Shown here: piece after piece, positions 1,985 through 55,792 of the stretch
Position numbering within the stretch: the first letter of the stretch is position 1
Layout: the number at the start of each line of letters is the position of its first letter
From: Candidatus Levyibacteriota bacterium
GTDB taxonomy: Bacteria > Patescibacteriota > Microgenomatia > Levybacterales > UBA12049
NCBI GenBank assembly: GCA_963716145.1
Contig: OY970292.1
Span: 268,104-332,103 of the forward strand
DNA: 64,000 bases
Direction of reading: 5' to 3'
Notes under the pieces: model-generated
Database searches by the model: none
What the model saw: only the letters and a program-made list of their open reading frames with translations
Told to the model about the DNA's origin: nothing
Program-made: the position numbers and the translations under genes

Positions 1985-4957
1985 TTAGCTACCTGATACT
2001 AAAGACGCGTATGCTGGCTGAGTGATAGACACACTCTTAATGTTGTTGTCTATCAGCGCATGAAATTCCGATGCGCTTTTGTCCCAGTTGAAGTTTTTTG
2101 ACCACACTAGAGCATTTTTAGAAAGTAAATCTCTGTACTCATTATCTGTAATTAATTTCTTCATAGCTCTACTTAATTGTTCAATATTTTTTGGGTCAAC
2201 TAGTAAGCCTGTTTCTCCATCAATCACTGAGTCTATTAAACCGTTAACGCGGGATGCAATTACAGGCGTTCCATTTGCGTTGGCTTCTATGACTGTAATG
2301 CCCCATCCTTCAATTTGTGATGGCTGAACAACTACCCAGCTTTCCTTTAGCATAAGATTTTTTTGTTCTTCAGTAGCTTTGCCAACAAATGTGACGTTGT
2401 TCTCAAGCTTTAATTTAGACACCAATTTTTTAAGCTTAAGATAGCTTTCACCGGTCCCGATAATCGAAAGGGTGGCATTTTGATGGTCCGTAAGGACTCT
2501 TGCGAATGCTTTGATTGCAATATCTATGTTTTTATAATTTTTGAGTCTACCCAAATATAGAAAAGAAGGAGTGACTGTTTTTACGACTTGAGCATTGCTA
2601 TAACTATACACACCGTTAGAAACAATCTCTATATTTTCTGCAGCAGTAAATCCTATTTTAATTATCTCACGTTTGGATGATTCTGAAACTGTAATTATTT
2701 TTTTATTTTTGTAAACAATAGGCATAAGTTTTCCCTCTAAATATGCGGCTGTTTGAAGGAAGGGAAAGTGCAAAAACTCCCTAAATATTTCCTGATGCAC
2801 GTGATGAATTAAAAGTATCACAGGAATCCTTGAGTATAGAGGTGAGAAAAAGGGAATTCCATTTTCGCAATCTATAATCAGGTCAACTTTTTTCCTAAAA
2901 ATGAACATATAGTATAAAAAGGCAAAAAGATAAACCGTATATGTTCCGCCTCTTCTTATAATCTCAACCCCGTCCACCTTTTCATTTAATAGACTTTTGT
3001 TGTCATTTCCGCAAAAGACCGTTACCCGGCTTCCGGTTTTAACCCACCTTTTAGCAAGCTCATGTATATAAACCTCAGCACCTCCTGCGTAAATATGTCC
3101 CGTGTCACGCCAATTAAAAATTAAAATATGATTAAGTCTGTTCTGACTCTTTTCAGGGAAGTGCGTAGTAAGTAAATTGTAGATACTTAGAACGTTCATT
3201 TTCATACTTACAACTACTGAATTGAGACCGGTTACAATCAATTGAAGAACAGGATGAAACGTCATCGTTCCATCAAGTGCGTACTTTTTGTATTTGTTTG
3301 CTAAATGGAGGCCATGGGTAGTTTTTTCCCAATAATGAGGTTTTGCTATGAGCTGATATAAAGCAATTACTCCCGCCCAGCTCATCAATGCCCAGTAAAA
3401 GGGTATGAAAAAAACATATTTCATTAAGTCCCATTCTTTTTTTCTACCACAGGCGATCATATAGTAATAAACAAACAAAAAATTTCCAAAAATCCATGAG
3501 AATACAGCAATATAAGAAATAGGCGGGGTGTAAACTGTTTCAAGAAGCGGACCAGCGAAAGCATAGGAAGTAAAATAAAGTATGGTAATTATCCACATTA
3601 ACGGGTTTATCAGTACAAACAAAATTTTTCCACCTACAGTAAGCTGGAAAACTATATAGTGAAGTATGCCTTTTTCGTCAATAAAGTCCTTATAATTTCT
3701 TGTGTGTACCAAGTACGTCTGCATGTATCCTTTTAGCCATCTGGATCGCTGCCGTACCCAATTCTTTATTCCGCTCGTTGCTTCTTCTAACGTTGTTGAT
3801 TCAATAACAGCTGTTCGAAACCCTTTTTGAAAAAGTCTAACTCCTAAGTCAGCGTCTTCTGTAACGTTAAAAGGGTCCCATCCCTGAAGGGATTTTAGTC
3901 TTTCTGTTTTAAAATGATTACTAGTTCCACCGAGCGGGAGACTGGAGCTAAATGACTGTAATCCGGTAAGCATTATGTCAAACCACAGCGCGTACTCTAC
4001 TGTAAAAAAGCGTGTTAAGTAGTTTGCTCTCGAGTTATAATAATTAAGCTTTGCTTGAAGACACTGAACATCTTCAGGCACTGTCTGAAAACCAAGATAA
4101 GCCTTTTTAAGCTGCAAAGGGTCAGGAATATCTTCAGCATCATAAACCACTAAATATTCACCAACAGCCAAGTTTAATCCGTAATTACAGGCTTTTGGCT
4201 TGGTTTTGGGAAGAGAAGGAGGGACTATAATTTTCCTAATGTAGGAAGGTAGTATCAATTTATCAAGTATTTTAATTGTTTCTTTATCATCTTCCTCCAG
4301 AAGAAGCAGAACGTCCAATTTTTCTTTTGGGTAATCAAGATTGTTTATAGCTTCTAAGAATTGAGGAAAAATATGCGCTTCTTTATAAAGTGGGCATAAA
4401 ACCGAATAAATCGGGAGTTTTGATTCGTCAATCGATGCCAAATCAGAATTGCTAAATGCCAATTCTCTAGGGCGCTGCATGCTGCTGTATACAACAGCAA
4501 AATTGAAAATAACATCCGCAAAATAGAGAATGCTAACAATTGCGGCAACAAGCTTCAGCGTCAAAATTGGGGAGACTACTAGGCCCAAAACTATAGTAAT
4601 CGCGATCCCTCCAATTGCAGCTTTTTGGATTAGACTAAATGTTTTGGCAGCAGAAAGTGAAAATGGAAGCGTGGTATGGGTGATATATTGTTGCGTGTTG
4701 TAGACAATTCCAGCTCCTGTCATGGAGGAAGCAAATTCAGGAAGTATTGCAGTCACTTGTGGCTTTGAATCTAATTTACCAAGAATTATTGCTGCATAAT
4801 TGCCATACAACTCTCTTAACTTCTCAATTATTGTTAGAAAGTTTTCAGCAGTATTTGCTATCTCAGATCTTAGTGAAGAAATAACACTTCCTTCTGTTCG
4901 TGAGAAATCAACTATAACAACTGCGTTGTTTAGGTCAAAAGACCGTATTATGCTCAT
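1985..4957 (-). CDS. large membrane glycosyltransferase: processive GT2 (QxxRW) fused to C-terminal GT4 domain
   Basis: 990 aa. N-terminal TM segments followed by a GT2 core (DAEDIPDP, TEDADLG, QRSRW), more TM helices, then a GT4 domain (EGWGITVIEANANGTPVIASRVNGL...GETGLLV). Confidence 0.8.
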   Translation of the reverse strand: MSIIRSFDLNNAVVIVDFSRTEGSVISSLRSEIANTAENFLTIIEKLRELYGNYAAIILGKLDSKPQVTAILPEFASSMTGAGIVYNTQQYITHTTLPFSLSAAKTFSLIQKAAIGGIAITIVLGLVVSPILTLKLVAAIVSILYFADVIFNFAVVYSSMQRPRELAFSNSDLASIDESKLPIYSVLCPLYKEAHIFPQFLEAINNLDYPKEKLDVLLLLEEDDKETIKILDKLILPSYIRKIIVPPSLPKTKPKACNYGLNLAVGEYLVVYDAEDIPDPLQLKKAYLGFQTVPEDVQCLQAKLNYYNSRANYLTRFFTVEYALWFDIMLTGLQSFSSSLPLGGTSNHFKTERLKSLQGWDPFNVTEDADLGVRLFQKGFRTAVIESTTLEEATSGIKNWVRQRSRWLKGYMQTYLVHTRNYKDFIDEKGILHYIVFQLTVGGKILFVLINPLMWIITILYFTSYAFAGPLLETVYTPPISYIAVFSWIFGNFLFVYYYMIACGRKKEWDLMKYVFFIPFYWALMSWAGVIALYQLIAKPHYWEKTTHGLHLANKYKKYALDGTMTFHPVLQLIVTGLNSVVVSMKMNVLSIYNLLTTHFPEKSQNRLNHILIFNWRDTGHIYAGGAEVYIHELAKRWVKTGSRVTVFCGNDNKSLLNEKVDGVEIIRRGGTYTVYLFAFLYYMFIFRKKVDLIIDCENGIPFFSPLYSRIPVILLIHHVHQEIFREFLHFPFLQTAAYLEGKLMPIVYKNKKIITVSESSKREIIKIGFTAAENIEIVSNGVYSYSNAQVVKTVTPSFLYLGRLKNYKNIDIAIKAFARVLTDHQNATLSIIGTGESYLKLKKLVSKLKLENNVTFVGKATEEQKNLMLKESWVVVQPSQIEGWGITVIEANANGTPVIASRVNGLIDSVIDGETGLLVDPKNIEQLSRAMKKLITDNEYRDLLSKNALVWSKNFNWDKSASEFHALIDNNIKSVSITQPAYASLVSGS

Positions 4958-13351: not shown

Positions 13352-14377
13352 TTACTCCGGTAGAAAACTGTATTGGTATTTAAGAAAATCCTTTACGTTT
13401 TTTGCTTCAAGCTTATCTGTCTGTAAAAGTTCAGACATTTTTACAAAAGTGAAACCTTTTTTCTTCAATTCTGTGATTATATTCGGAAGCGCGTTGGCTG
13501 TCTCAGGCTCATTGGGAAATCCATTCATATGCAGAACAATTATTGAACCGTTTTTAACATTTTCAATCACATTATTTTCAATAAACTGACGGTCAGTATT
13601 AAAGCCGTCTTGTCCTTCTGCATCCCATTGTATGGGCAAAACTCCTGCTTTGGACGCAATATCAAGATCTTTCTGCGAGTAACAACCACCGGGAAAACGA
13701 AACGATTTATTTTCAACGCCTGTAATTTCTTTTAATAACTCTTGGGTTTTTTCTATTTCTAACTTATCTTGATCATCATTTGAAGGTAGTAGGCCGTAAC
13801 AGTCTCCATCAAAGGACGGATGAGAATATGAGTGATTAGCAAGCTCAAATAAAGAATTATTTGCCAAACTCTTGGATAACTCCCGATAGGCCTCAATCCA
13901 CATGCCTGCTAGGAAAAGAGTTGCCTTTGTATTCGTTTCAGTCAATATGTCGATTATTCGTCTATCATAGTAACTAGCGACAGCTCCTGACTCAAGGTTT
14001 TGTTTCATTTCAGGAGTCATATCCGCGTCAAATGTTAAAGCCAGTTGTTTCATGCCCCGATATCCATGGAAAATAATTCTATTTCTATTTGAAGAAAATA
14101 AAATTGGGCGGTCTTTTTTTACTTTCCCCAAAATCGGGCTCACCTTCTCAAGAAAAGGTGAAGTCTTTGTATAATATGAATTATCATAAAATAGCATTAC
14201 CAATCCTTTGCCAGCTCCAAAAACAACAAGAAAAGTTAAAAGCAAGAAAGCAATTTTTTTGATTAAGTTATATGGAAAAATTAATCTTGGTAATTTCTTT
14301 CTGGCAGGATATGAAAGGCTAATCTTGAGCGTAATTCCCAGGAAGTCAATTTTTTTACTTTTAGTTATTCGCTTCAC
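13352..14377 (-). CDS. polysaccharide deacetylase (NodB homology domain)
   Basis: 341 aa. TM anchor. TFDADM and NHSYSHP motifs of the CE4 family. Confidence 0.8.
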   Translation of the reverse strand: MKRITKSKKIDFLGITLKISLSYPARKKLPRLIFPYNLIKKIAFLLLTFLVVFGAGKGLVMLFYDNSYYTKTSPFLEKVSPILGKVKKDRPILFSSNRNRIIFHGYRGMKQLALTFDADMTPEMKQNLESGAVASYYDRRIIDILTETNTKATLFLAGMWIEAYRELSKSLANNSLFELANHSYSHPSFDGDCYGLLPSNDDQDKLEIEKTQELLKEITGVENKSFRFPGGCYSQKDLDIASKAGVLPIQWDAEGQDGFNTDRQFIENNVIENVKNGSIIVLHMNGFPNEPETANALPNIITELKKKGFTFVKMSELLQTDKLEAKNVKDFLKYQYSFLPE

Positions 14378-41747: not shown

Positions 41748-43015
41748 ATGGACAAAGTAACAGTCAAAACAATAGACGAGGCGGAAAAAGTGCTTGAAAA
41801 TGTGATACGCAAAACGCCGCTTCAGTATAACAAACGGCTTTCCGATTTATATGGGCCAAAATATACTTTAAACGCGAAGATCTGCAAGATGTCCGCTCAT
41901 ACAAAATAAGAGGCGCGTACAACCTGATGAATAGCCTAACGGCAAAAGAAAAATCAAAAGGCGTTGTGACAGCCAGCGCGGGAAACCATGCGCAGGGAGT
42001 AGCGATGAGTGCATATATTCTCAAGATAAAAGCTACAATTTTTATGCCTGTAATCACACCTCTTCAAAAAATTAATAAAGTAAAACATTTTGGAAAAGAA
42101 TGGATAACAGTAAAACTTGTGGGGCAGGTGTATGATGATGCCTCTAATGCTGCGCATCAGTATTGCGAAGAAAACAAACAAACATATGTTCACCCTTTCA
42201 ATGATCCGCGCACCATATCAGGGCAAGGGACAGTCGGAAAAGAGATTTTGGAACAACTGGAAGAAAAAAGCCTGCCAACCAAAGGAAAAGTTGATTTTGT
42301 TTTTTGCCCGATTGGCGGAGGCGGACTCATATCAGGAGCTGGCACTTACATCAAAACAAAATTCCCAGATGCAAAAATCATTGGAGTTGAGCCAAAAGGT
42401 GCTCCCGCAATGCTTGAGGCCTTCAAACAGAAAAAAGTAGTGACCCTCAAAAAGATAGACACTTTTGTCGACGGTGCAGCAATAACGACTGTTGGAGAAT
42501 TGAGCTTCAAGATTGCCTCAAAAGTCACTGACAAAATCGTGGTGAGCGATGAAGGGAAAGTCTGTGTAACTATGGTTGATCTTTACCAAAACGAGGGAAT
42601 AATCGCAGAACCCGCCGGAGCATTATCGATTTCAGCACTGGACGAATTTGCTAAAGAAATTAAAGGAAAAACTATAGTTTGTGTCTTGAGTGGGGGAAAT
42701 AATGATATTCTGCGTTATCCTGAGATAATGGAAAAGAGTCTGGTTTATAAAGGCTTGAAGCACTATTTTCTGATTGAGTTCGCTCAAAAACCCGGACAAT
42801 TAAGACAATTCCTCAATCACGCCCTGGGTCCGAGAGATGATATAGTTTTATTTGAATACATAAAAAGAAACTCCAGAGAAAAAGGACCGGCACTTATCGG
42901 GGTTGAGCTGAGTAAAAAAGAAGATCTTTCTCTTCTTCTTGACAACATGGACAAATTGCAGATACGCTATACAAAGATCACAGCAGACGACCCTCTTTAC
43001 GGGTTTGTGCTCTAA
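41748..43015 (+). CDS. ilvA: threonine dehydratase (threonine ammonia-lyase) with C-terminal regulatory domain, split by a frameshift in this assembly
   Basis: PLP motif SYKIRGAY, ASAGNHAQGVA, GGGGL. The N-terminal 53 codons are in another frame. Adding one A to the A4 run at 41858-41861 gives ...LSDLYGPKIYFKREDLQDVRSYKIRGAY... Confidence 0.85.
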
Positions 43016-43027
43016 TATTACTTCTAT

Positions 43028-43405
43028 ATGAAAATTATAAAAACAGATAATGCCCCAGCAGCAGTTGGCCCATATTCACAAGCAATTATAAGCAATGGTT
43101 TTGTTTTTTGCTCAGGTCAAATAGGACTAGATCCCAAAACAGGAGAGTTAAAGGGAGCGGATATAATTTCTCAGACAACTCAAATAATTTTTAATCTAAA
43201 ATCAGTGCTTGAGCAAGCAGGAAGTTCGCTGCAAAACGTTGTTAAAACTACTTGCTATCTAACTGATATTTCAGATTTCCAGAAATTCAATGATATTTAC
43301 GCAAAGCACTTCATATCCTCTCCTGCGCGGGCAACAGTTGAGGTATCTCATCTCCCAAAAGATGCTATAGTTGAGATCGAAGCGATCGCCGAAATCAATT
43401 CATGA
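43028..43405 (+). CDS. ridA: RidA/YjgF family enamine/imine deaminase
   Basis: 125 aa. DNAPAAVGPYSQAI...VKTTCYL...PARATVEV signature. The classic ilvA-ridA pairing. Confidence 0.9.
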   Translation: MKIIKTDNAPAAVGPYSQAIISNGFVFCSGQIGLDPKTGELKGADIISQTTQIIFNLKSVLEQAGSSLQNVVKTTCYLTDISDFQKFNDIYAKHFISSPARATVEVSHLPKDAIVEIEAIAEINS

Positions 43406-44484
43406 TCAATCAAGATAGACTGGTACAAACCTTCCTCGATCTGGTAAAGATAGACAGCCCCTCAGGTGATGAAAAAGAAATATCAAAATTTGTTGCGAAA
43501 AAATTAAAAAATTTAGGCGGAAAAGTTGTATTTGATAATTATGGAAACCTAATTGCGAAATTTGGAGGAATAGGCGAGTCCTTTATGCTCAACAGTCACT
43601 TGGATACCGTTGAGCCGGGACGCGGAATAAAACCAAAAATTCTAGGAGACAAAATAGTCTCATATGGAACGACAATACTTGGCGGGGACGCGAAAGCTGG
43701 CGTCGCGGTTATACTTGAAACGCTTGAATCGCTAAAAGAAGATCGTAGAAAGCCTGTCCCCATTGAAGTTGTACTTACGCTGGAGGAGGAGATAGGCTTG
43801 AAGGGGGCAGTAAATCTTGATTACTCCAAAATCCATTCAAAAATAGGAGTAACATTTGACGGAGATAAATCAGGCGTTGAAAATATTACTGTCTCAGCTC
43901 CGGGATATAACACAGTTGATGTTGAAATTATCGGTTGGGCTGCGCACGCCGGTTCTGAACCGGAGAAAGGAATTTCCGCAATTAAAATCGCCGCCGAAAT
44001 CATAACCCATCTTGAAGTTGGAAGGATTGATCAAGAAACTACTGCCAATGTCGGGTTGATTGAAGGAGGTAGCGCGCGAAACACAGTCCCTGAGAATGTG
44101 CATTTTAAAGCTGAGATAAGAAGCCGCAGTCTTACAAAACTTGAAAAGCATTCCATACATTTTGAACAGGTTTTCAAAATGGTTTCAGCAAAATATCCTG
44201 CAGCTAAAATTAAGTTGAATATTCAACGGGAATTTGATCCATACTTTTTTGTGGAAACTCAAGACGTGATACAGCAAATTAGCAAAGCGCTTAAAAAGAT
44301 TGGGCTGAAACCAAAACTGGGATCAGCAGGCGGGTCATCTGATGTTAATATCTTTTACGCACACGGAATAGAAGCAGTATGCGTGGGTGGCATGTATTAC
44401 AATCCGCACACAACAAGGGAATATGTTAAAATTTCAGATTTGGTAAATGGAGCCCGATTTTGCGAAGAATTGGTCCTAAATTAG
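43402..44484 (+). CDS. M20 family peptidase (peptidase T-like)
   Basis: 360 aa. HLDTV, GGDAKAG and EEEIGLKGA metal-binding motifs of M20B/PepT. Confidence 0.8.
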   Translation: MINQDRLVQTFLDLVKIDSPSGDEKEISKFVAKKLKNLGGKVVFDNYGNLIAKFGGIGESFMLNSHLDTVEPGRGIKPKILGDKIVSYGTTILGGDAKAGVAVILETLESLKEDRRKPVPIEVVLTLEEEIGLKGAVNLDYSKIHSKIGVTFDGDKSGVENITVSAPGYNTVDVEIIGWAAHAGSEPEKGISAIKIAAEIITHLEVGRIDQETTANVGLIEGGSARNTVPENVHFKAEIRSRSLTKLEKHSIHFEQVFKMVSAKYPAAKIKLNIQREFDPYFFVETQDVIQQISKALKKIGLKPKLGSAGGSSDVNIFYAHGIEAVCVGGMYYNPHTTREYVKISDLVNGARFCEELVLN

Positions 44485-45136: not shown

Positions 45137-46355
45137 ATGGATAAAAATCAAATTAAAAGCCACCAGCAAATTAGCCAGGAGCAGGATCTGTATGTTATGT
45201 CTGAGCTTGTTGGCTCAGGCCTGCCACTATTGACACCCAAAGGGACTGTCCTTAGAAGAACTCTTCAAGCATACATAGATAATTTGTTGGAAAAACAGGG
45301 ATACCAATTTGTAACGATTCCGCACATCGCGCGAAAAACACTTTACGAAAAATCCGGACATTTAGAAAAATTTTCCGAGGATATGTTTCCGGTTATGAAG
45401 ACAAAGGACCGCGAATATATGCTCAAACCGGCAAACTGCCCCCATCATATAGAAATTTTCGCCAGAAAACCACATTCTTACCGCGAGATGCCTCAGCGTT
45501 ACGCTGAAAGCACCACGCAATACCGATCCGAGCAGTCAGGAGAACTTGAGGGGCTCGCAAGAGTCCTGGCTTTAACACTTGATGATTCCCATGTTTTTGC
45601 CACACTTGATCAAATAAAAGATGAATTTAGAAGAGCGTTGAATATCAATAAGCAAATGCTTGAGGATTTTAAATTGAATTACTGGATTAGACTATCAGCA
45701 TGGGATCCAAAAAAGAAGACAAGGTACCTGGGTGATGAGAAGGTATGGGAGGAGATGCAGAATTTAATGGAACAGATTCTCAAGGATTCTAAAATTAATT
45801 ATAAAAAGGTTGAGGGCGAAGCCGCTTTTTACGACCAAAATGGATCTTATTACAACAGACTCAAACGGAAAAGAATGGCAGGTGTCAACAATTCAGGTGG
45901 ACTTCAATTTACCTGAAAGATTTAACATATCGTATATTGACGCAGACGGAAAAGAAAAAAGGCCTATCATGCTTCACAGGGCAACTTTTGGATCATATGA
46001 GCGTTTCCTGGCAATGATTATTGAACATTTTCAAGGTGCATTTCCCACTTGGCTTGCGCCTGTTCAGATGACGCTTCTACCAATTGCCGATAGACATATT
46101 GAATTTGCTGAGCAAGTGAATAAACAACTACTAGATGCGGGGTTCCGCTCAGAGGTTGATACGCGCTCTGAACGGCTTCAGGCCAAAATCCGAGATGCTG
46201 CTTTACAAAAAGTACCATTTATGGGTATAATAGGGGATAAAGAAATTGATACCAAAGAGGTATCTGTTAGAATGCGCGGGGGAGAAGACTTAGGTTCCCT
46301 TACAAACGAATCCCTAATTAATAAGTTACAAGAAAACATTGATAAGAAAATATAA
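45137..46355 (+). CDS. thrS: threonyl-tRNA synthetase (catalytic core + anticodon-binding domain; no N-terminal TGS/editing domains), split by a frameshift in this assembly
   Basis: Class II motifs (YMLKPANCPHH, FRRALN). The second ORF continues ...QVDFNLPERF...HRATFGSYERF...PTWLAPVQ. Frames join at the T5 run 45826-45830. Confidence 0.85.
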
Positions 46356-47445: not shown

Positions 47446-47541
47446 ATGATTAACTCAGTGAAAAACTTACAATTAAATTGGTATTACTTTTACTTTACTT
47501 CTCGCAAAAGCGGGAGGTTGAGTTATGGTTTAAATAACTAA
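47446..47541 (+). CDS. putative aromatic (Trp/Tyr/Phe)-rich leader peptide MINSVKNLQLNWYYFYFTSRKSGRLSYGLNN
   Basis: 31 codons. TGG TAT TAC TTT TAC TTT run at 47479-47496. Begins 2 nt after the rplT stop. Confidence 0.5.
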   Translation: MINSVKNLQLNWYYFYFTSRKSGRLSYGLNN

Positions 47542-47588
47542 AAAGAAATAAACCAAAACCCAATACCTCCCAAACGGGAGGTTTTTTT
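47501..47588 (+). promoter_or_regulatory. attenuator: hairpin CTCGC-aaaa-GCGGG, antiterminator GGGAGGT/ACCTCCC, terminator ACCTCCC-aaac-GGGAGGT + T7
   Basis: GGGAGG occurs at 47512-17 and 47576-82, and CCTCCC at 47566-71. Terminator U-run at 47582-47588. Confidence 0.55.
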
Positions 47589-47604
47589 ATGGGAAAAATA
47601 AAAT

Positions 47605-47976
47605 ATGAGAACACAAGAACTACAGCGCGACAGAATAGAAATATGGGAAAGAAGAAAATCTGCAAAACCCAGTGGCAAGGATGTTGTTACGGCTATGATA
47701 TTCCCGCTGCCATGGGGCGCTGGTGTTCATCAGTTTGAATCCCCTGCCGGGACAATAACCGTTGATATGAGCTTTGGAAGAATAAATCCGGCAAATGAAA
47801 CTCAACAAGTCGTCGTAAAAGGACCTCGGAGTGGCGGGACGATTGTAATGGATCTTATAAATGGAAAGGGAAGAGCAATGCCTAGCCCTGGTGTTGAAGT
47901 GGTTTTTGACGCGTCCCGGCTTACAAGCGCGTTGGATGCGGACAATATGCGCTCAAAATCTAGGCGAGGCTGGTAG
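47605..47976 (+). CDS. hypothetical 123-aa protein under aromatic-leader control
   Basis: No family recognised (…TITVDMSFGRINPANETQQVVVKGPRSGGTIVMDLINGKGR…). Moderately GC-rich. Confidence 0.45.
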   Translation: MRTQELQRDRIEIWERRKSAKPSGKDVVTAMIFPLPWGAGVHQFESPAGTITVDMSFGRINPANETQQVVVKGPRSGGTIVMDLINGKGRAMPSPGVEVVFDASRLTSALDADNMRSKSRRGW

Positions 47977-47991
47977 TCAAATATATTTTTG

Positions 47992-48020
47992 TTGACTAGC
48001 ATAAAAAAGTCTGATATACT
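47992..48020 (+). promoter_or_regulatory. sigma70 promoter TTGACT-17-TATACT
   Basis: TTGACT at 47992-47997 and TATACT at 48015-48020. The leader ATG is 8 nt downstream. Confidence 0.6.
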
Positions 48021-48027
48021 ATATCCA

Positions 48028-48084
48028 GATGAAGAATCTTATTAAAACAAACGCATTTTACTTTACCTTCGCTAAGCGGGGGTA
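48028..48084 (+). CDS. putative Phe/Tyr-rich leader peptide MKNLIKTNAFYFTFAKRG
   Basis: 18 codons. TTT TAC TTT ACC TTC at 48055-48069. The stop TAG (48082-84) lies inside segment 2 of the attenuator. Confidence 0.6.
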
Positions 48085-48133
48085 GGTTTTTGCGTAAAAA
48101 CAAAAATGCACCTCCGGAAACGGAGGTTTTTTT
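48058..48133 (+). promoter_or_regulatory. Phe attenuator (1:2 TACCTTCG/CGGGGGTA; 2:3 CGGGGGT/ACCTCCG; 3:4 terminator ACCTCCG-gaaa-CGGAGGT + T7)
   Basis: Mutually exclusive pairings verified by hand. U-run at 48127-48133 immediately before ATGGAAAAAATATG. Confidence 0.6.
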
Positions 48134-48144
48134 ATGGAAAAAAT

Positions 48145-49422
48145 ATGGTAAGAATAGATACATTGAGAGGAAAAGACAACCTAAGAGATCCGGAAGTACA
48201 ACCAGTGTCAACAATTGCGTACCTTAGTCCAAATGGGAATTTCACGCACGTTGCTGCTTTGGAACTACAGCGGAAACAAAGCGCATATGAAGGAGCGCTG
48301 CTCATGGGCATACCATCAATAGATGGTATGTTTGAAGCGGTTGTGTCGGGCGGAGCATCATATGCACTAGTTCCAGTTGAAAATTCAACAGATGGAGCTG
48401 TGCCTAAAACGCATAAAAATTTATATGAACGGGAGGGATTACAAATCGTTGGAGAATTCGTATTGCCAATATCGCAAACCCTTTATTATCAAAATATCGA
48501 TATGGTTAGAATTGTAGCATCCAAAGATTCGGCTCTTGGGCAGTGCAGGAAAAACATCAAACGCTTGAACGATGAAATAAATAAAAAAAGAGTAAAAGAA
48601 GGAAAAGAAAAAATTATTCTACGGCTAGAAACCATGGAAAGCACGGGCGCTGCAGTTGCTGAAGCCGCGATAAAACCCTGGATTGCAGCATTGGGAAGTT
48701 CCATTTCCGCTGAGGCACAAAAAATTACAAATCTTCATAAAGAAGATGATTTTAACGATAGGGAATCTAACGCAACTACATTTGCGCTGGTTCAGCTTGC
48801 GAGAGAGCTGCCTCCTCCGACTGGAAATGACAAAACCACATTTACAATGACAATTCCTGACACGCAAGGATCGCTTGTGCATGCTCTTGATGTCCTTGCG
48901 AGAAACAACGTTGATCTGAACAAAATCAAATCAATCGGTAAGGAGAGTGGGACTGTTACATTCTTAATGTCTGCCGACGGCCATTTACAAGATGGTATCA
49001 TGCAGGAAGCACTTATCGCATTGGAAACAGATCCTGAAAGAGACATTAAGGTAAAAAGACTAGGTTCATATGCCAAAGATGATTATACTCCGGAGGAGAG
49101 TGAAGAAACATATGATTTTGAGGCAGCCATTGAAAGAATTGATAAAGAAGCAGGGAATGGTGAAGCAATGGATGAAAATAAAATGATTGCAATCTTCACG
49201 CTAAAAGACCACCCCGGAGCACTAAGAGATGCTTTAAGACCATTTGCTAACGCAGGGGTGAATCTTACGAAAATTGACTCACAGCCAAGCGGCATACATA
49301 ATGAGCACATCTTTTATGTAGCTTTTGATAAAACTACTAAAAACCAAGAAGCTCTATTGGATGAATTAAAGAGACAATCTCATTTTCATAAGGTAATTCC
49401 CGGCGGGGGAAAGAAAAAATAA
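48145..49422 (+). CDS. pheA: prephenate dehydratase with tandem ACT-like regulatory region
   Basis: PDT domain (TIAYLSPNGNFTHVAALE, ESTGAA, NATTFALV) and ACT (PGALRDALRPFANAGVNLTKIDSQPS). Start set at 48145, because the ORF-track start 48106 would translate the terminator hairpin. Confidence 0.8.
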   Translation: MVRIDTLRGKDNLRDPEVQPVSTIAYLSPNGNFTHVAALELQRKQSAYEGALLMGIPSIDGMFEAVVSGGASYALVPVENSTDGAVPKTHKNLYEREGLQIVGEFVLPISQTLYYQNIDMVRIVASKDSALGQCRKNIKRLNDEINKKRVKEGKEKIILRLETMESTGAAVAEAAIKPWIAALGSSISAEAQKITNLHKEDDFNDRESNATTFALVQLARELPPPTGNDKTTFTMTIPDTQGSLVHALDVLARNNVDLNKIKSIGKESGTVTFLMSADGHLQDGIMQEALIALETDPERDIKVKRLGSYAKDDYTPEESEETYDFEAAIERIDKEAGNGEAMDENKMIAIFTLKDHPGALRDALRPFANAGVNLTKIDSQPSGIHNEHIFYVAFDKTTKNQEALLDELKRQSHFHKVIPGGGKKK

Positions 49423-49442
49423 ATATATGCTACAATTTAATT

Positions 49443-50471
49443 ATGGAACATGAATTACTGACAATTAAAAATAACGCGCTTTCTCTCATCTTTGACGCGA
49501 AAGAGAAAAAAGAGCTTGAGGAAATAAAACTGCAATTTCTCGGACGATCTGGAGAACTTACACGAGTTCTTAAAGGGCTTCCCAAATTATCAGAAGATGA
49601 AAAACCAACTATCGGCAAAGTGGCCAATGAGGTAAAAACGATTATTGAAAACGCTATCAAGCAGAAAGAATCGGAACTTGGCAAGAAAAAAGACACAAAC
49701 TTTATACTTGATGTCACGGAACCTGGTATTAAACCGCCTCTGGGACATCTGCATTTAGTTACACAGGCTATCCGTGAAATAACACGGATTTTTGAGAGCA
49801 TAGGATTTACCAGAGTCAGTTATCCTGAAATTGAATGGGATTGGTACGCGTTTGAAGCGCTAAATTTCCCAAAGCACCATCCGGCAAGAGATGATTGGGA
49901 GACATTTTTCATCGACCAAAAACCAGATAGCAAAAAAGGGCCTGTTGTTCTAACTCCTCACACTTCATCCGGTCAAATCCGGGAATATGAAAAAGGTGAG
50001 CTTCCTATTAAGTGCTTAAATATTGCCAAATGCTATCGGAGGCAATCTGATGTCTCACATACTCCGGTGTTTCATCAATTTGAAACAATGGTTGTCGGAG
50101 AAAATATATCAATAGCAGATCTTAAGGGGGTTCTTGATTATTTTGTAAAGTCATACTTTGGACCTGATAGAAAATCAAGAATACGACCATATCATTTTCA
50201 ATTTACTGAGCCCTCATTTGAAACAGATATTTCTTGTGGCGTATGTAATGGAAAAGGCTGCAAGCTTTGCAAGGAGGGCTGGCTTGAGTTGGGAGGAGCA
50301 GGTATGGTTCATCCGAATGTATTAAAAAACACGGGTCTTGATCCGAAAAAATATTCAGGGTTTGCATCGGGCTGGGGCGTGGAGCGCGTTCTCATGATGA
50401 AAGACGGAATTCAAATAGATGATTTAAGGACGCTCTACGCAAATGATCTGGATTTTCTGCAACAATTTTAA
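49443..50471 (+). CDS. pheS: phenylalanyl-tRNA synthetase alpha subunit
   Basis: 342 aa. Class II motifs. FETMVVGE, GLDPKKYSGFASGWGVERVLM. Confidence 0.95.
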   Translation: MEHELLTIKNNALSLIFDAKEKKELEEIKLQFLGRSGELTRVLKGLPKLSEDEKPTIGKVANEVKTIIENAIKQKESELGKKKDTNFILDVTEPGIKPPLGHLHLVTQAIREITRIFESIGFTRVSYPEIEWDWYAFEALNFPKHHPARDDWETFFIDQKPDSKKGPVVLTPHTSSGQIREYEKGELPIKCLNIAKCYRRQSDVSHTPVFHQFETMVVGENISIADLKGVLDYFVKSYFGPDRKSRIRPYHFQFTEPSFETDISCGVCNGKGCKLCKEGWLELGGAGMVHPNVLKNTGLDPKKYSGFASGWGVERVLMMKDGIQIDDLRTLYANDLDFLQQF

Positions 50472-50473
50472 TT

Positions 50474-52425
50474 ATGAATATACAAATTCTGGACAGTTGG
50501 TTAAGAGAAAATTTAAAGACAAAAGCGTCTCCTAAACAAATTGCGGAGAAACTTTCTTTATCAAGTGTTTCTGTTGAGAAACTTGAGAAAAAGGGCGAGG
50601 ACTACCTTTACGATATTGAAGTAACCACCAATCGACCGGATCTTATGTCTGTTGTGGGTTTGGCACGCGAAGCAGCAACTGTCCTATCTCACAATGGCAT
50701 AGCTGCAGAATTCCAAAAACTTACCTTCCCAACTGTAACCACAAAACTAATTAAAGAAGAATTCACTATCGAAAATGATCCAAAACTTGTAAATAGAGTT
50801 TGTGCTGTCGTGATAGAAGTAACAGCAAAACCATCTCCCAAAAAAATAAAAGAAAGGCTTGAAGCAAGTAACATACGAAGTCTTAATAATATTATTGACG
50901 TTACAAATTATGTCATGCGGGCAATCGGTAATCCTATGCACGCGTTTGATTATGACTTGCTTGCGACCAAAAAATTTGTTATCCGCGAGTCCAGACCAGG
51001 CGAGAAATATACAACTCTTGATAATAAAGAATATATACTTCCTGGAGGCGATATTGTTGCAGATTACGGCACAGGAAAGATTGCCGATCTTCTGGGCGTA
51101 ATGGGTCCTAAGCAAAGCGCAGTTAGCGATGCAACGAAAAGAATTTTATTCTTTGTTGACAACAATGAACCGCATCGTATCCGCAAAACCTCAATGTCAC
51201 TTGGTCTTCGGACAGAGGCAGCTATTCTTAATGAAAAAGGAATTGATCCTGAACTCTCTATGGATGCGCTTTTGTATGGAGTAAAACTTTATGAGGAATT
51301 TGCTGATGGAAAAGTGATTTCTGAAATCATTGACATATATCCAAATAAAGTAAAACGCAACGAGATAATAGTGAATGAGGATAAAATAAACTCCGTAATT
51401 GGTATCGCAGTTCCGCTTAAGACTTCATCATCGATTTTGAAGAGTCTTGGATTTGAAGTTGAAATTAAAGATAGATCCCTTTTAGTTAAACCGCCATCTT
51501 TCAGAACCCGTGACGTAGAAATCACGGAAGATGTAATTGAGGAAATTGCAAGAATCTATGGATATGAAAACATTCCCAACCGGATACCTGAACTTACCAA
51601 TCAAAAACCATTTAATTTTTCAAAAAATCAATTCTTTTTTGAAGATAGAACAAAAGACGCCCTTAAGTATTGGGGCTTTACTGAAAGCTATACCTACCCG
51701 ATGGTTTCAGAAGATCTATATGAGGGCCACCAGACTCTTCAGTAAAAATAAAAAATCCCTTGAATGAAGAATTTGTCTATATGAGGATGAGTCTCGTGCC
51801 AAGCCTGTTAAAGGTAGTAAAGGATAATAAAACTCACCCGATTATAAAAATCTTTGAAATTGCAAATGTTTATGAAAAAAACGGCGATGGTCTGCCAAAG
51901 CAAATTCAAAAAATTGCGGGAATCGTTAAAAAACCAGGAGCATCTTTTTATGAGGTAAAAGGAGTAATTGAGCAGCTTTTTTTGGATCTTGGAATAAAAA
52001 ATGCGATCTTTAAACAAACGATGGCCGGTACCGGGGCAACAATTTCTATAGGTAAAGAAGAATTGGGAGATATTGAAGTCTTAGCCCGGGACACAATTGA
52101 TTTTGAGCTGAATTTTGAACAAATCCTCAAACACGCAACTGTCAAAAAAGTATATAAAACAATCAGCAAGTTCCCGCAATTCGTTGAAGATCTGGCAATT
52201 ATCGCGCCGGAGAAAATTCAAACAGGAGAGATAATTGAAACAATCAAAGCTCAAAATGAGCTTGTCATCGACGTATCGCTTCTGGATAAATATGAGGAGA
52301 CAAGAACGTTTCATATTGCTTATCAGAGTGATAGTAGAAATCTTACGGGAAAAGAGGTGGGAGAAATTAGAGAAAAGATTCTAAAAGCTCTAAAAGAAAA
52401 ACATAACGCACTGCTTAAAGAATAA
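50474..52425 (+). CDS. pheT: phenylalanyl-tRNA synthetase beta subunit (short form without N-terminal tRNA-binding domain), split by a frameshift in this assembly
   Basis: B3/B4 (TNRPDLMSVVGLAREAA), B5, and core (NPLNEEFVYMRMSLVPSLL) domains. Making the G3 run at 51724-51726 a G4 run joins ...EDLYEGPPDSSVKIKNPLNEE... Confidence 0.85.
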
Positions 52426-52427
52426 GT

Positions 52428-53150
52428 ATGAAAACTACACAAATTTATCTAGACGATTCTTATCAAACAGAAATGGACGCAAAGATATTAGAAATCCAAC
52501 CGGAAGCTGACGGTAAATGGAGAATAATACTTGACCAAACGGTTTTTTACCCTATGGGTGGAGGGCAGCCTACAGATCAAGGGAAATTATCTTCTGATTC
52601 ATGGAGTGGGGATGTGTATCAAGTGATGATGAAGGATGGGGAGATCTGGCACTACGTAAATGCACAAAATTCTCCGACAGCCGGAGACACCGTACATGGA
52701 ACAATTGACTGGGATAGAAGATACAAAAACATGAGAGTGCATACAGGGGGACATATAGTGGATTTTGCGATGTATCTTCTCGGATATTCACCAAAGCAGC
52801 TTTCACCTCTAAAAGCAGATCACGGAAAAAAAGCTTATATCGTTTATCAAGGGACTGTGCGGGATGAAATAAAACAAAAGCTCGAAGAAAAAGCAAATGA
52901 GTTGGTAGAAAAAGATTTAAAGTTTTCTTGGGATTTCCAACCTTTGGAAGCTTTGCAAAAAGAAGCGATTTATCTTCAACCAAATCTGCCGACAAATAAA
53001 CCTCTCCGAACATTCCGGCTTGAAGGAGTAGGCGCGGTGGCAGATGGGGGAACTCAACTTCACTCGACAAAAGAAGCAGGAAAAATCCTGATTGACGAAA
53101 TAACATCTGACGAAGAGAATACAATAGTGAAATATTCACTCGGTAATTGA
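52428..53150 (+). CDS. AlaX-type alanyl-tRNA editing protein (Ala-tRNA synthetase second additional domain)
   Basis: 240 aa. FYPMGGGQPTDQG, HTGGHIV (HxxxH) and DGGTQLH (CGGTH-like) zinc motifs. Confidence 0.75.
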   Translation: MKTTQIYLDDSYQTEMDAKILEIQPEADGKWRIILDQTVFYPMGGGQPTDQGKLSSDSWSGDVYQVMMKDGEIWHYVNAQNSPTAGDTVHGTIDWDRRYKNMRVHTGGHIVDFAMYLLGYSPKQLSPLKADHGKKAYIVYQGTVRDEIKQKLEEKANELVEKDLKFSWDFQPLEALQKEAIYLQPNLPTNKPLRTFRLEGVGAVADGGTQLHSTKEAGKILIDEITSDEENTIVKYSLGN

Positions 53151-53424: not shown

Positions 53425-55792
53425 TTAAGGAGTTGGCGACAGCGTTGGTGTGATTGCGGCTCCGCTGACTGCTGGAACAGGTGTTGGAGTAGGTTCGTCT
53501 TTTTTGTCCTCATGCTTTGGATTTTTTACATCATCCGGCGCATGATACATCTTGTCATCTTTATGGTTTTGCTCAATCCATGCATCAATTCCTTCCTGCC
53601 ATCTATTTTTGCCGTCAGTCGAAACAGGATCATCTTCGTGAAATATCAGATAGTTTTGCCCATCTTTGCTTTTATAGATAGGCGATTCGCTTGTGGGCTC
53701 TGTCCCTTTGACAAAATATTCTGACCTTGTTGGCTGCCCTCCGTGAGGCAAACCTCCGGCCAAAGTATCAATCTGAAGCGCTACCACGCTATCAGGCTTT
53801 TGCGGCTGCTCATCCGCTTTATCCTTAAGTACAAAAGTCATTATCTTATTCCAGATAGGCGAAGCTCCCGTTACACCACTGGCAATAACAGGATTCATTG
53901 GCGCATTGTTATTGTTGCCGACCCATACCCCAACCACATATGATGGAGTATATCCTACCGTCCAGTTATCTCTTTTGTCATCAGTCGTACCTGTTTTGAC
54001 AGATACGGTTTTACCGGGGATATTGAGAGCGGAGCTTGGTCCAAACGCCGCGGATCTTGCATTATTATCCAAAAGCATATGAGAAATTACGAATGCTACT
54101 CCCTCCGACAGTACTTTTTTTCCTTCCGTTTTTTTCTTCTCGTATAACACCTTTCCTTTTGGATCTGTCACTTTAAGTATTGTGACCGATTCTTGCTTCA
54201 CCCCTTTATTTGCAAAAACACTGTAAGCCGTAACTTCATCAAGCAAAGATGCTTCACGTCCTCCCAAAACCAGAGACAATCCAACGCTCGCGCGGTTTTT
54301 TGCTGTGGCTCCCAATTTTGAATCCCCATTTCATAAGCTTTTCGCATCACAGGCTCTATGCCCACCATTGCGAGCATTTTCACAGCGGGGATGTTAAATG
54401 AGTTACCTAAAGCAAACCTGGCCTGCACCGGCCCCTAAATTTTCCATCGTAGTTTGGTGGTGTATAAATAGGGGGTACACCGCTCACTGGAAAATCAGTT
54501 TTGGTATCCATTATCAAGGTAGCAGCTGTATATCCCTTTTCCAAGGCCACAGCGTATATAACAGGCTTCATTGATGATCCTGGTTGTCTGGTATTTTTGA
54601 TTGCGACATTTGGGTCAGGATCAAATACGCAGTCTGCTCCGGAGGTACAACCCTCAGGCGCCGACTTGCCAAAATAATCCTTACTTCCAACCATTGCCAG
54701 AATTTCACCACTTTTAGGATCAGCAACTACTGCTGCTCCATTACCCACCTTGTATGTTTTCAATTTATCTACCTCATCCTGCACGATTTGTTCGGCTTTT
54801 TCTTGAATTTTGTAATCAAGAGAAGTTGTGACCTGAAGACCTCCTGTAGCAACAGCCTGTTCACCAAACTGTTTTGCCAAAATTTCCCTTACATACATTA
54901 CAAAATGGGGAGCTTTGATTGCTTCATCGCGTTCCGAAAATTTATAATTTTTTATCTCATTGAATGCATCGTTTGATTCACTTTGCGAGATATAATTATT
55001 TGCAACCATTTGGCGAAGAACTGCCTGTGTGCGCTCAATATAATATTTTTGACCACTAAAAGGCGCGTAACGCGACGGGCTTTGGGGAAGACCGGCCAGA
55101 AAAGCAGATTCGGCAAGATCCATATCTTTTGATTTTTTTCCAAAATATTGCTGAGAGGCAGCTTCAACTCCTATTGCGGTTCCGCCATAAGGAATGTTAT
55201 TCAAATACATTTCCAATATTTCGTCTTTTTTATACTTTTGATTAACTTGGATGGCCAAAATCAGTTCTTTAATTTTTCTTGGCAAACTCCGCTCGTTGGA
55301 AAGAAGCACGTTCTTTACTAATTGCTGAGTAATTGTCGATCCTCCGGTCAATCCATGACCAAGGAGTGCATCTCTCGCAACTCTAACATAGGCGAGAGGG
55401 GAAAAACCATTATTTTTGTAAAAATCCTTATCCTCAATTGAAATAGTCGCTTCCTGAAGCTTTTTGGGGATTTGATCCAACTTTACATAAGTTCTGTTCT
55501 CATCCTGATAAACTGAGTAAAGAAGATCTCCTTTTCTATCGTAAATCCGTGTTGCGTCTTTGTATTTTGAAGTCACCAGTTTTCCAGGTGTAGGCAGATC
55601 ACGAGAGAACCATAAGAACATTAAGGGGATAGCTACAATTACCCCAATTAATGCATACAATGCGTATTTGAATATCTTGTCATTGGTCAATATTCCGGAA
55701 AGGTCGAATTTAGTCTTTTGCCTATTTAGTCTGCTGCGCCGCCGCCTGGGTCTGTAATCCATAGAACTATCTATATTATAGCAAAAATTCAA
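53425..55792 (-). CDS. class A penicillin-binding protein (GT51 transglycosylase + transpeptidase), split into three ORFs by two frameshifts in this assembly
   Basis: 54407..55792 has GT51 EDKDFYKNNGFSP and the SxxK active-site motif SSMKP. 54198..54428 has ALGNSFNIPAVKML. 53425..54315 has KTGTT and a PT-rich tail. Junctions at about 54407-54428 and about 54198-54315. Confidence 0.85.

Follow-up and report, generated by a model that had tools for sequence, protein, structure and literature searches.

Results

An orphan gene lies behind an aromatic leader between rplT and pheS

We analyzed a 64-kb stretch of DNA (contig OY970292.1, hereafter the window) in which an open reading frame (ORF) at 47605–47976, running from ATG to TAG on the forward strand like all other window features given here, encodes an orphan protein of 123 amino acids that we call X (cluster P0001). 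X proves to be a genuine, selected, clade-restricted gene. It holds a conserved position between rplT and pheS, behind an attenuator whose leader peptide contains a run of Trp, Tyr, and Phe codons (W/Y/F leader), and the content of the slot that it occupies varies among relatives. We infer that X is part of the regulon by which its hosts respond to aromatic starvation, because the same attenuator and the same slot carry aromatic biosynthesis genes in the wider clade. Our preferred interpretation, to which we give an even chance, is that X is a non-catalytic binding partner or regulator that is induced by aromatic starvation as the first cistron behind the W/Y/F attenuator. As a guess, we place its role on the Phe branch (prephenate dehydratase, PDT, or an aminotransferase) or in the supply of Phe-tRNA, with far lower odds on any single partner.

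The gene order in the window is thrS, infC, rpmI, rplT, leader 1, X, leader 2, PDT, pheS, pheT. A first-pass annotation, made from the DNA letters without database searches, had placed X directly downstream of a Trp/Tyr/Phe leader and upstream of a Phe leader and pheA, and the sequence bears this out. The protein sequence that it quoted matches the translation of 47605–47976 exactly, and its statement that X resembles no recognizable family agrees with our searches of Pfam, NCBIfam, PHROGs, and PADLOC, which gave zero matches (for Pfam by hmmscan, 0 families at E up to 1); a sequence-profile search of the PDB likewise gave 0 matches. The atypically high GC content that it had remarked on is real (47.8% for X versus 39.0 ± 3.9% for the window, the 98.5th percentile), but its source is an amino-acid composition rich in Gly, Ala, Pro, and Arg. 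GC at third codon positions is an ordinary 39.5%, and on this ground foreign DNA was rejected as the reason for the high GC. A phage or defence origin was also rejected (no PHROGs or PADLOC match, no IMG/VR relative, and no BFVD structural match), as was a frame-shifted remnant of an aromatic gene, since four X loci, compared by blastx with the proteins encoded in the cargo of eight related loci, gave no match at E < 0.75.

The reading that X is not a gene, being instead a chance ORF or the product of homopolymer sequencing errors, draws some support from the window assembly, which contains indels: a deletion of one base interrupts pheT, and thrS and a gene for a penicillin-binding protein (PBP) likewise look split. 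X itself, however, is identical in an independent Logan assembly (contig L001), which differs from the window at one site in 7095 bases, an indel inside pheT. Only one run of five or more identical bases, a run of five, occurs within X, and its homologues, about ten in number and colinear with it, align from first residue to last. The homopolymer frameshift that the first-pass annotation had asked about was thus looked for and not seen. Moreover, the X orthologues of L004 and L006 differ at 14, 15, and 46 sites at codon positions 1, 2, and 3, respectively, and this bias toward the third position indicates purifying selection on the protein. We conclude that the artefact reading is effectively refuted and essentially excluded.

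Anatomy of the attenuator upstream of X

Leader peptide 1 (47446–47541; MINSVKNLQLNWYYFYFTSRKSGRLSYGLNN) begins one base past the stop codon of the upstream gene, rplT (ribosomal protein L20; 47094–47444; Pfam Ribosomal_L20, E = 5.7e-40), and has 31 codons, of which codons 12–17 form the aromatic run W-Y-Y-F-Y-F. Directly after the aromatic codons lies a hairpin, 1:2 (47497–47518; ACUUCUCGC-AAAA-GCGGGAGGU), and farther downstream an intrinsic terminator (47565–47589), in which an ACCTCCC-AAAC-GGGAGGT stem-loop (47565–47582) is followed by seven T residues. Read from the sequence, GGGAGGU (47512–47518), the 3′ arm of the hairpin, has its complement in ACCUCCC (47565–47571), the 5′ arm of the terminator, and pairing of the two could form an antiterminator, as in a classical attenuator. 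RNA of the leader 1 region folds with a minimum free energy of –40.9 kcal/mol (z = –4.56). The element upstream of X therefore has the aromatic codon run, the terminator, and the alternative pairing of a leader-peptide attenuator, and it scores below the gathering threshold of the Rfam model Phe_leader (RF01859), which matches both leaders of the window at less than the gathering score of 55 (leader 1, 36.3 bits; leader 2, 28.0 bits).

By this anatomy, scarcity of aromatic charged tRNAs would stall the ribosome at the WYYFYF codons, where it would cover segment 1. Segment 2 (GCGGGAGGU) would then pair with segment 3 (ACCUCCC), no terminator would form, and RNA polymerase would read on into X and then into the next unit. 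With plentiful aromatic charged tRNAs, transcription would end at 47565–47589. X would in this way be induced by a shortage of charged aromatic tRNAs.

X keeps its position across lineages in a mosaic locus

X lies between rplT and pheS in every locus recovered. The order rplT, W/Y/F leader with terminator, and X, upstream of pheS-pheT, was found in the window, L002, L003, L004/L005, L006, and L025. Inspection of five of these loci at the DNA level (window, L002, L003, L004, and L006) showed the leader ORF and a GGGAGG...CCTCCC-loop-GGGAGG-T-run terminator before X in each, with the leader ending in NWYYFYFTS, NWFYFYFTS, SWSFYYFTS, FWNYYYFTS, and SWNFYYFTT, respectively. A PDT gene follows X in four lineages (window, L004/L005, L006, and L025), each time with its own promoter-like element and a Phe-only leader; in L025, the order is X, PDT, class I/II aminotransferase, pheS. 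The L002 and L003 lineages have no PDT gene at the locus, and pheS begins about 50 nt after X.

Identities vary from gene to gene along the locus. Between the window and L004, they are 85% for PDT, 56% for X, 55% for pheS, and 78% for rplT, and between the window and L002, they are 80% for pheS and 40% for X. The PDT of L025 is 29% identical to that of the window and has the same promoter-plus-leader design. For the PDT module (window 47992–49422 versus L004 6380–7809), the contrast in identity with the flanks suggests recent exchange, the figure of 85% being that of the PDT protein only. A PDT-based contig scan found no close relative.

X belongs to a small, fast-evolving family

Searched by word index, a set of 5.8 billion clusters yielded X alone, and HMMER, run in full over 1.84 billion representatives, detected three small homologues that are full-length (P0002, 59% identity; P0003, 37%; P0006, 35%). 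With a profile search, the count grew to eight clusters of 117–126 residues. The leader scan described below came upon one of these again (P0011, carried by L025) and contributed a further member, divergent and truncated, from L055, for a total of about 10 proteins. Giant repeat proteins from the HMMER scan (P0004, P0005, and P0007) were rejected as adhesin-type homologues: they score at most about 10 bits per repeat, with per-domain E values of 1e4–1e6, and represent summed chance matches. The invariant residues of the family are D9, E12, L35-P36, G38-A39, P62, L84, G87, G89-R90, L106-T107, L110, and a C-terminal G-W. They are thus mostly Gly, Pro, and Leu, the others being D9, E12, R90, T107, and the terminal G-W. 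The isoelectric point (pI) is 9.3–10.3 in six of eight members, 8.1 in one, and 5.6 in one.

The hosts of X are probably a few lineages of small-genome bacteria of the Patescibacteria, or candidate phyla radiation (CPR), since the source names of the closest AroC relatives are Patescibacteria group, Pacebacteria, and Saccharimonadales and since the contigs measure 0.8–1.1 Mb; the NCBI label of L006, Limnocylindrales, is at odds with this placement. In the AroC search, no contig of an X genome was among the best 120 matches listed, all with at least 76% identity.

X is one of several cargos of the rplT–pheS slot

We scanned JGI metagenomes with a DNA pattern made from leader 1 and its terminator. 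The scan returned 55 loci, about 35 with rplT immediately upstream, and in about 40, the leader has 15–31 codons with an aromatic run followed by T-S. The content of the slot ranges over the full shikimate pathway, partial aromatic sets, X, unrelated orphan ORFs, and nothing. At L040 (295–9450), 9 kb hold a PfkB kinase, a protein like 3-deoxy-D-arabinoheptulosonate 7-phosphate (DAHP) synthase, aroB, aroA, aroK, aroE, aroD, aroC, an AroQ chorismate mutase (CM_2, E = 3e-19; 91 residues), and a TyrA-PDT fusion; here PfkB, CM_2, and the TyrA-PDT fusion are Pfam-confirmed, and the aro names come from reading the sequences (the AroC homologues carry PF01264). L037/L044 carry DAHP synthase, TyrA-PDT-ACT, CM_2 (in L037, E = 1e-18 and 99 residues), a class IV aminotransferase, aroA, and further genes up to aroC, the leader of L037 lying at 13453–13531 on the reverse strand. 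L061 has two W/Y/F leaders, each with its own aromatic module, and L010, L015, L027, L029, L036, L039, and L041 show the same beginning of such aromatic clusters, with a partial set in L010. No chorismate mutase was found at the locus in L061, which has TyrA-PDT, or in L010. L051 carries a PDT-like protein, TyrA, and DAHP synthase. The clusters of L040 (428–2316), L010, L015, L027, L029, L036, and L041 open with a PfkB-family kinase and then a protein of about 313 residues that has an IIAGPCS motif and no Pfam match and may be a divergent, DAHP-synthase-like first enzyme.

The W/Y/F attenuator after rplT is widespread in related small-genome bacteria, and in several it fronts a complete shikimate/aromatic pathway (7–9 kb) before pheS. 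Because the cargo behind the leader is variable and, in several relatives, aromatic, we interpret the leader as controlling, by attenuation, an aromatic "supraoperon" inserted between rplT and pheST, with X as one of several alternative cargos of this aromatic-starvation attenuator. A literature search on this type of locus found no description of it.

Other orphans share the slot. Family Y, with a C-terminal motif like VDYxGN, occurs at L012 (8248–8580) and, in reverse-complemented coordinates, at L020/L046 (L020 2663–2980), L030 (868–1188), L058 (9601–9882), and L028 (1455–1712). Family Z, which contains ...APGSE.H..., occurs, in the same reoriented coordinates, at L031 (1767–1997), L033 (10984–11166), where the slot holds almost nothing, and L049 (4938–5255). 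Pfam gave no match for X, Y, or Z, and a relationship of X to Y or Z was rejected at hhalign probabilities below 1%. In L050, which is among the loci with a partial aromatic set, an 87-residue, Cys-containing, β-rich orphan ORF (2904–3167) follows directly on the aromatic leader and runs into the beginning of a stand-alone PDT gene (3164), a second case of a small orphan protein paired with PDT.

PDT and pheS downstream of X have promoter-like elements of their own

The first-pass annotation had X and pheA co-regulated by one aromatic leader. The two genes are indeed neighbors in an aromatic-responsive locus, but they have separate attenuators, X behind the W/Y/F leader 1 and PDT behind its own promoter-like site and the Phe-only leader 2. 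The site is of sigma-70 type (47992–48020; TTGACT-17-TATACT with a TG extension), and the same element occurs in L006, L004, and L025. It is followed by the Phe-codon-rich leader peptide 2 (48030–48086; MKNLIKTNAFYFTFAKRG), with homologues MKNLTKINAFFFAFA in L006, MKNLVKVNAFFFTS in L004, and MIKQINNAGFFFTS in L025, and by the intrinsic terminator of attenuator 2 (48110–48134; stem-loop 48110–48127). The PDT gene, pheA (48145–49422), encodes 425 residues with the Pfam PDT domain at residues 24–217 (E = 9.6e-29) and an NCBIfam assignment as prephenate dehydratase. Only 23 residues precede the PDT domain and no CM_2 domain is present, so that the earlier description of pheA as a stand-alone dehydratase with no fused chorismate mutase domain stands. 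The ACT match (E = 3.1e-14) falls in two stretches, and the protein thus has two ACT-like stretches instead of the usual single ACT domain.

An extended –10-like element (49428–49436; TGCTACAAT) lies 6 nt before the ATG of pheS (49443–50471; Pfam tRNA-synt_2d, E = 2e-77) and may be a promoter of its own that gives a leaderless pheS mRNA. In nearly every related locus, such an element (TGnTAnAAT or TGnTATCCT) ends 6–8 nt ahead of the pheS start codon (seen in the window, L002, L003, L004, L010, L012, L020, L031, L033, L040, L050, L051, and L061), which suggests that pheS is generally transcribed from a promoter of its own as a leaderless mRNA. If so, the slot genes, here X, would be cargo specific to attenuator 1. 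The next gene, pheT (50474–52425), is broken in the window assembly at about 51723, where one base is missing (GG, compared with GGG in L001); in L001 it is intact and encodes 650 residues. Pfam gave no match to the B2 domain (tRNA_bind, with an oligonucleotide/oligosaccharide-binding fold, OB-fold) in PheT of L001 (4111–6063) or L002 (7464–9416). Across the clade, PheT has 624–650 residues, too short for B2, in genomes with X and in genomes without it (e.g., L037, L031, and L033). X as a split-off B2 domain of PheT was rejected, PheT being equally short in X-less relatives and X having no OB-fold signal.

Several neighboring genes deserve mention. Directly after pheT, a 240-residue protein (52428–53150) matches the core profile of alanyl-tRNA synthetase over the C-terminal part of that profile alone; it is AlaX-like and possibly trans-editing. 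The window thrS (45137–46355) aligns in two frames to the 408-residue ThrRS of a relative, and the gene for a class A PBP (53425–55792) is broken into two ORFs, in both cases by an apparent single-base indel. Upstream of the thrS operon, 41927–44484 holds a threonine dehydratase (PALP + Thr_dehydrat_C) and a RidA-family protein, and the ORF at 43402–44484 is syntenic with the M20 peptidase gene of relatives; the contig of P0002 has the same arrangement of threonine dehydratase, RidA, and M20.

X is predicted to be an all-β domain with a C-terminal helix

The AlphaFold model of X, built from an eight-sequence alignment, has a predicted local distance difference test (pLDDT) score of 81 and a predicted template modeling (pTM) score of 0.70, and four of the five models score pLDDT 72–81. 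It comprises eight β-strands (residues 10–102), a C-terminal helix (residues 104–120), and a short basic tail that ends in G-W. X is thus predicted to be a basic, all-β domain of about 13.5 kDa with a C-terminal helix and an invariant GW terminus. A Foldseek search of the PDB with this model, which the first-pass annotation had proposed as a check, gave no confident match to a solved structure: among the best 50 of 342 matches listed, none had E < 0.38 and none was a chorismate mutase. Known families were also considered individually, among them the PH-like superfold (EVH1, Dcp1, and Ran-binding domains), which is defined by a β-sandwich of about seven strands with a C-terminal helix as its cap. 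X has no sequence match to AroQ (PF01817, CM_2), and its β-rich model does not show the all-helical AroQ fold; the same hmmscan recognizes the CM_2 domains of L040 and L037 (3e-19 and 1e-18). There was no Pfam match to AroH (PF07736, CM_1) and no AroH chain among the best 50 of the 342 Foldseek matches. Similarly, X has no Pfam match to tRNA_bind (PF01588; the OB-fold of PheT B2 and Trbp111), and no such chain was among the Foldseek matches listed.

Discussion

We favor a non-catalytic partner or regulator because the conservation of X falls mostly on structural residues and on a terminal, docking-like G-W, and because X persists in genomes whose locus has no PDT. Several observations weigh against this interpretation. 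Unrelated small ORFs occupy the same slot in Y/Z-type loci, so the slot may tolerate arbitrary or young genes. X evolves fast, with 37–60% identity where rplT has 77–88% and pheS up to 80%, and one member of the family is acidic (pI 5.6). Only eight sequences went into the modeling, one model of the five failed, at pLDDT 37.5, and no structural neighbor validates the model that was kept. The locus is mosaic (PDT 85% and X 56% identical between the window and L004), and linkage is accordingly not one of strict co-inheritance. Finally, no homology links X to an activity.

The first-pass annotation had put X forward as a chorismate mutase analogue or another component of aromatic metabolism. What stands of this proposal is the setting: the locus is aromatic-regulated, the same slot holds aromatic biosynthesis genes in sister lineages, and PDT follows X in four lineages. 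Taken furthest, the proposal makes X a chorismate mutase of a third structural class, all-β, or an enzyme for another step of the Phe branch; it would have evolved in genome-reduced Patescibacteria, be encoded as X-PDT(-aminotransferase), be switched on by the attenuator, and feed prephenate to PDT. The X-[promoter + Phe leader]-PDT arrangement recurs in the window, L004/L005, L006, and L025, with two types of PDT that are 29% identical to each other both found after X, and the series X, PDT, aminotransferase, pheS of L025 would cover chorismate to Phe minus only the mutase. No CM_1 or CM_2 occurs at these loci, nor, by tblastn, in the 64-kb window, and L050 offers a small β-rich orphan that overlaps the start of a stand-alone PDT gene. 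The absence of a mutase is, however, uninformative and not special to X genomes, since L061 and L010 likewise have none at the locus, and the sister lineages with the full pathway use an ordinary AroQ. X itself has no CM_1 or CM_2 sequence match even at E = 1, its eight β-strands and single C-terminal helix fit neither the all-helical AroQ nor AroH, and neither is among the Foldseek matches listed. It also occurs without PDT in L002 and L003, and R90 is its sole invariant basic residue for a dicarboxylate substrate. We therefore consider a catalytic X a long shot. An accessory factor of phenylalanyl-tRNA synthetase (PheRS) or tRNA-Phe, perhaps a tRNA-binding module that replaces B2 of PheT in trans, is also unlikely, if somewhat easier to reconcile with the position of X, which is always upstream of pheS-pheT and adjoins pheS in L002 and L003. 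PheT has no tRNA_bind/B2 domain, and X is near B2 in size and mostly basic; yet PheT is just as short (624–650 residues, without about 150 residues) in the X-less L037, L031, and L033, so that X does not track the loss of B2, which is Pfam-confirmed for L001 and L002 only. Two types of pheST in X genomes (pheS 52–55% or 76–80% identical to that of the window; PheT of 629 or 650 residues) argue against co-evolution with X, pheS appears to be self-promoted, and X shows neither a Pfam tRNA_bind match at E = 1 nor an OB-fold, Trbp111, or PheRS chain among the Foldseek matches listed.

A minority possibility that we take more seriously is that X has nothing to do with aromatics: a young gene, restricted to its lineage and evolving fast, it would sit in a permissive slot that the loss of aromatic genes left. 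Control by the attenuator would then be incidental, or X would have recruited it to sense starvation in general, as might suit, for instance, a factor with which an episymbiont interacts with its host. The company of X in the slot fits this well, as sister genomes hold at least two unrelated orphan families (Y and Z) and several singletons there, and so do the extremely narrow distribution of X, its rapid divergence, and its lack of a known fold. It is harder to square with purifying selection and full-length conservation across lineages whose rplT differs by 12–23%, with an attenuator that is intact in every X genome, and with the lack of any-frame similarity to remnants of aromatic genes. 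A non-catalytic partner or regulator within the aromatic-starvation response thus remains the interpretation that we prefer.

The frame of the locus is of the classical pheM/pheL type; what is unusual is its occurrence in CPR-like genomes and the exchangeable cargo slot inside rplT-pheST, which is filled by a complete shikimate pathway in some lineages and by small orphan proteins in others. For an orphan gene, such a regulatory clue is rare: X is probably needed at times when charged aromatic tRNAs are scarce. As a catalyst of the Phe branch, X would bring a new fold to a textbook reaction; as a partner or regulator, it would illustrate the rewiring of an amino-acid starvation circuit in bacteria with reduced genomes that have lost the pathway.

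Comparison with known systems

Two close parallels lie in Escherichia coli. The pheM-pheST attenuator has the same gene order, thrS-infC-rpmI-rplT-leader-...-pheS-pheT, and has in common with attenuator 1 a short leader ORF that immediately follows rplT, a stretch rich in F and Y ahead of T-S (FFFYFST at the end of E. coli pheM), the 1:2 / 2:3 / 3:4 hairpin logic, a G+C stem with a U-run, and a weak Rfam match. The window differs in scoring 36 against a gathering score of 55, in mixing Trp, Tyr, and Phe codons, in placing X (in relatives, up to 9 kb of aromatic genes) between the attenuator and pheS, and in that pheS apparently has its own leaderless promoter. Leader 2 (AFYFTFA in the window, AFFFAFA in L006) and its terminator before a prephenate dehydratase gene resemble pheL-pheA of E. 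coli, whose leader reads …FFFAFFFTFP, although here the enzyme has no fused chorismate mutase, contains two ACT stretches, and belongs to a unit nested inside the rplT-pheST locus.

Like AroQ and AroH, X is a small protein (these have about 90–130 residues) encoded beside PDT or TyrA, and AroQ genes of sister lineages (L040, 91 residues; L037, 99 residues) sit in the very same slot; X nonetheless matches neither in sequence and differs from both in its predicted fold, all-β with a helix at the C terminus. At the level of the whole locus, the aro-trp-his-tyr supraoperon of Bacillus subtilis also clusters aromatic genes with unrelated neighbors under a regulator that senses aromatic amino acids. 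Here, in contrast, the cluster is embedded between rplT and pheST, the regulator is a leader-peptide attenuator rather than TRAP or a T-box, and in the X genomes an orphan gene replaces the cargo.

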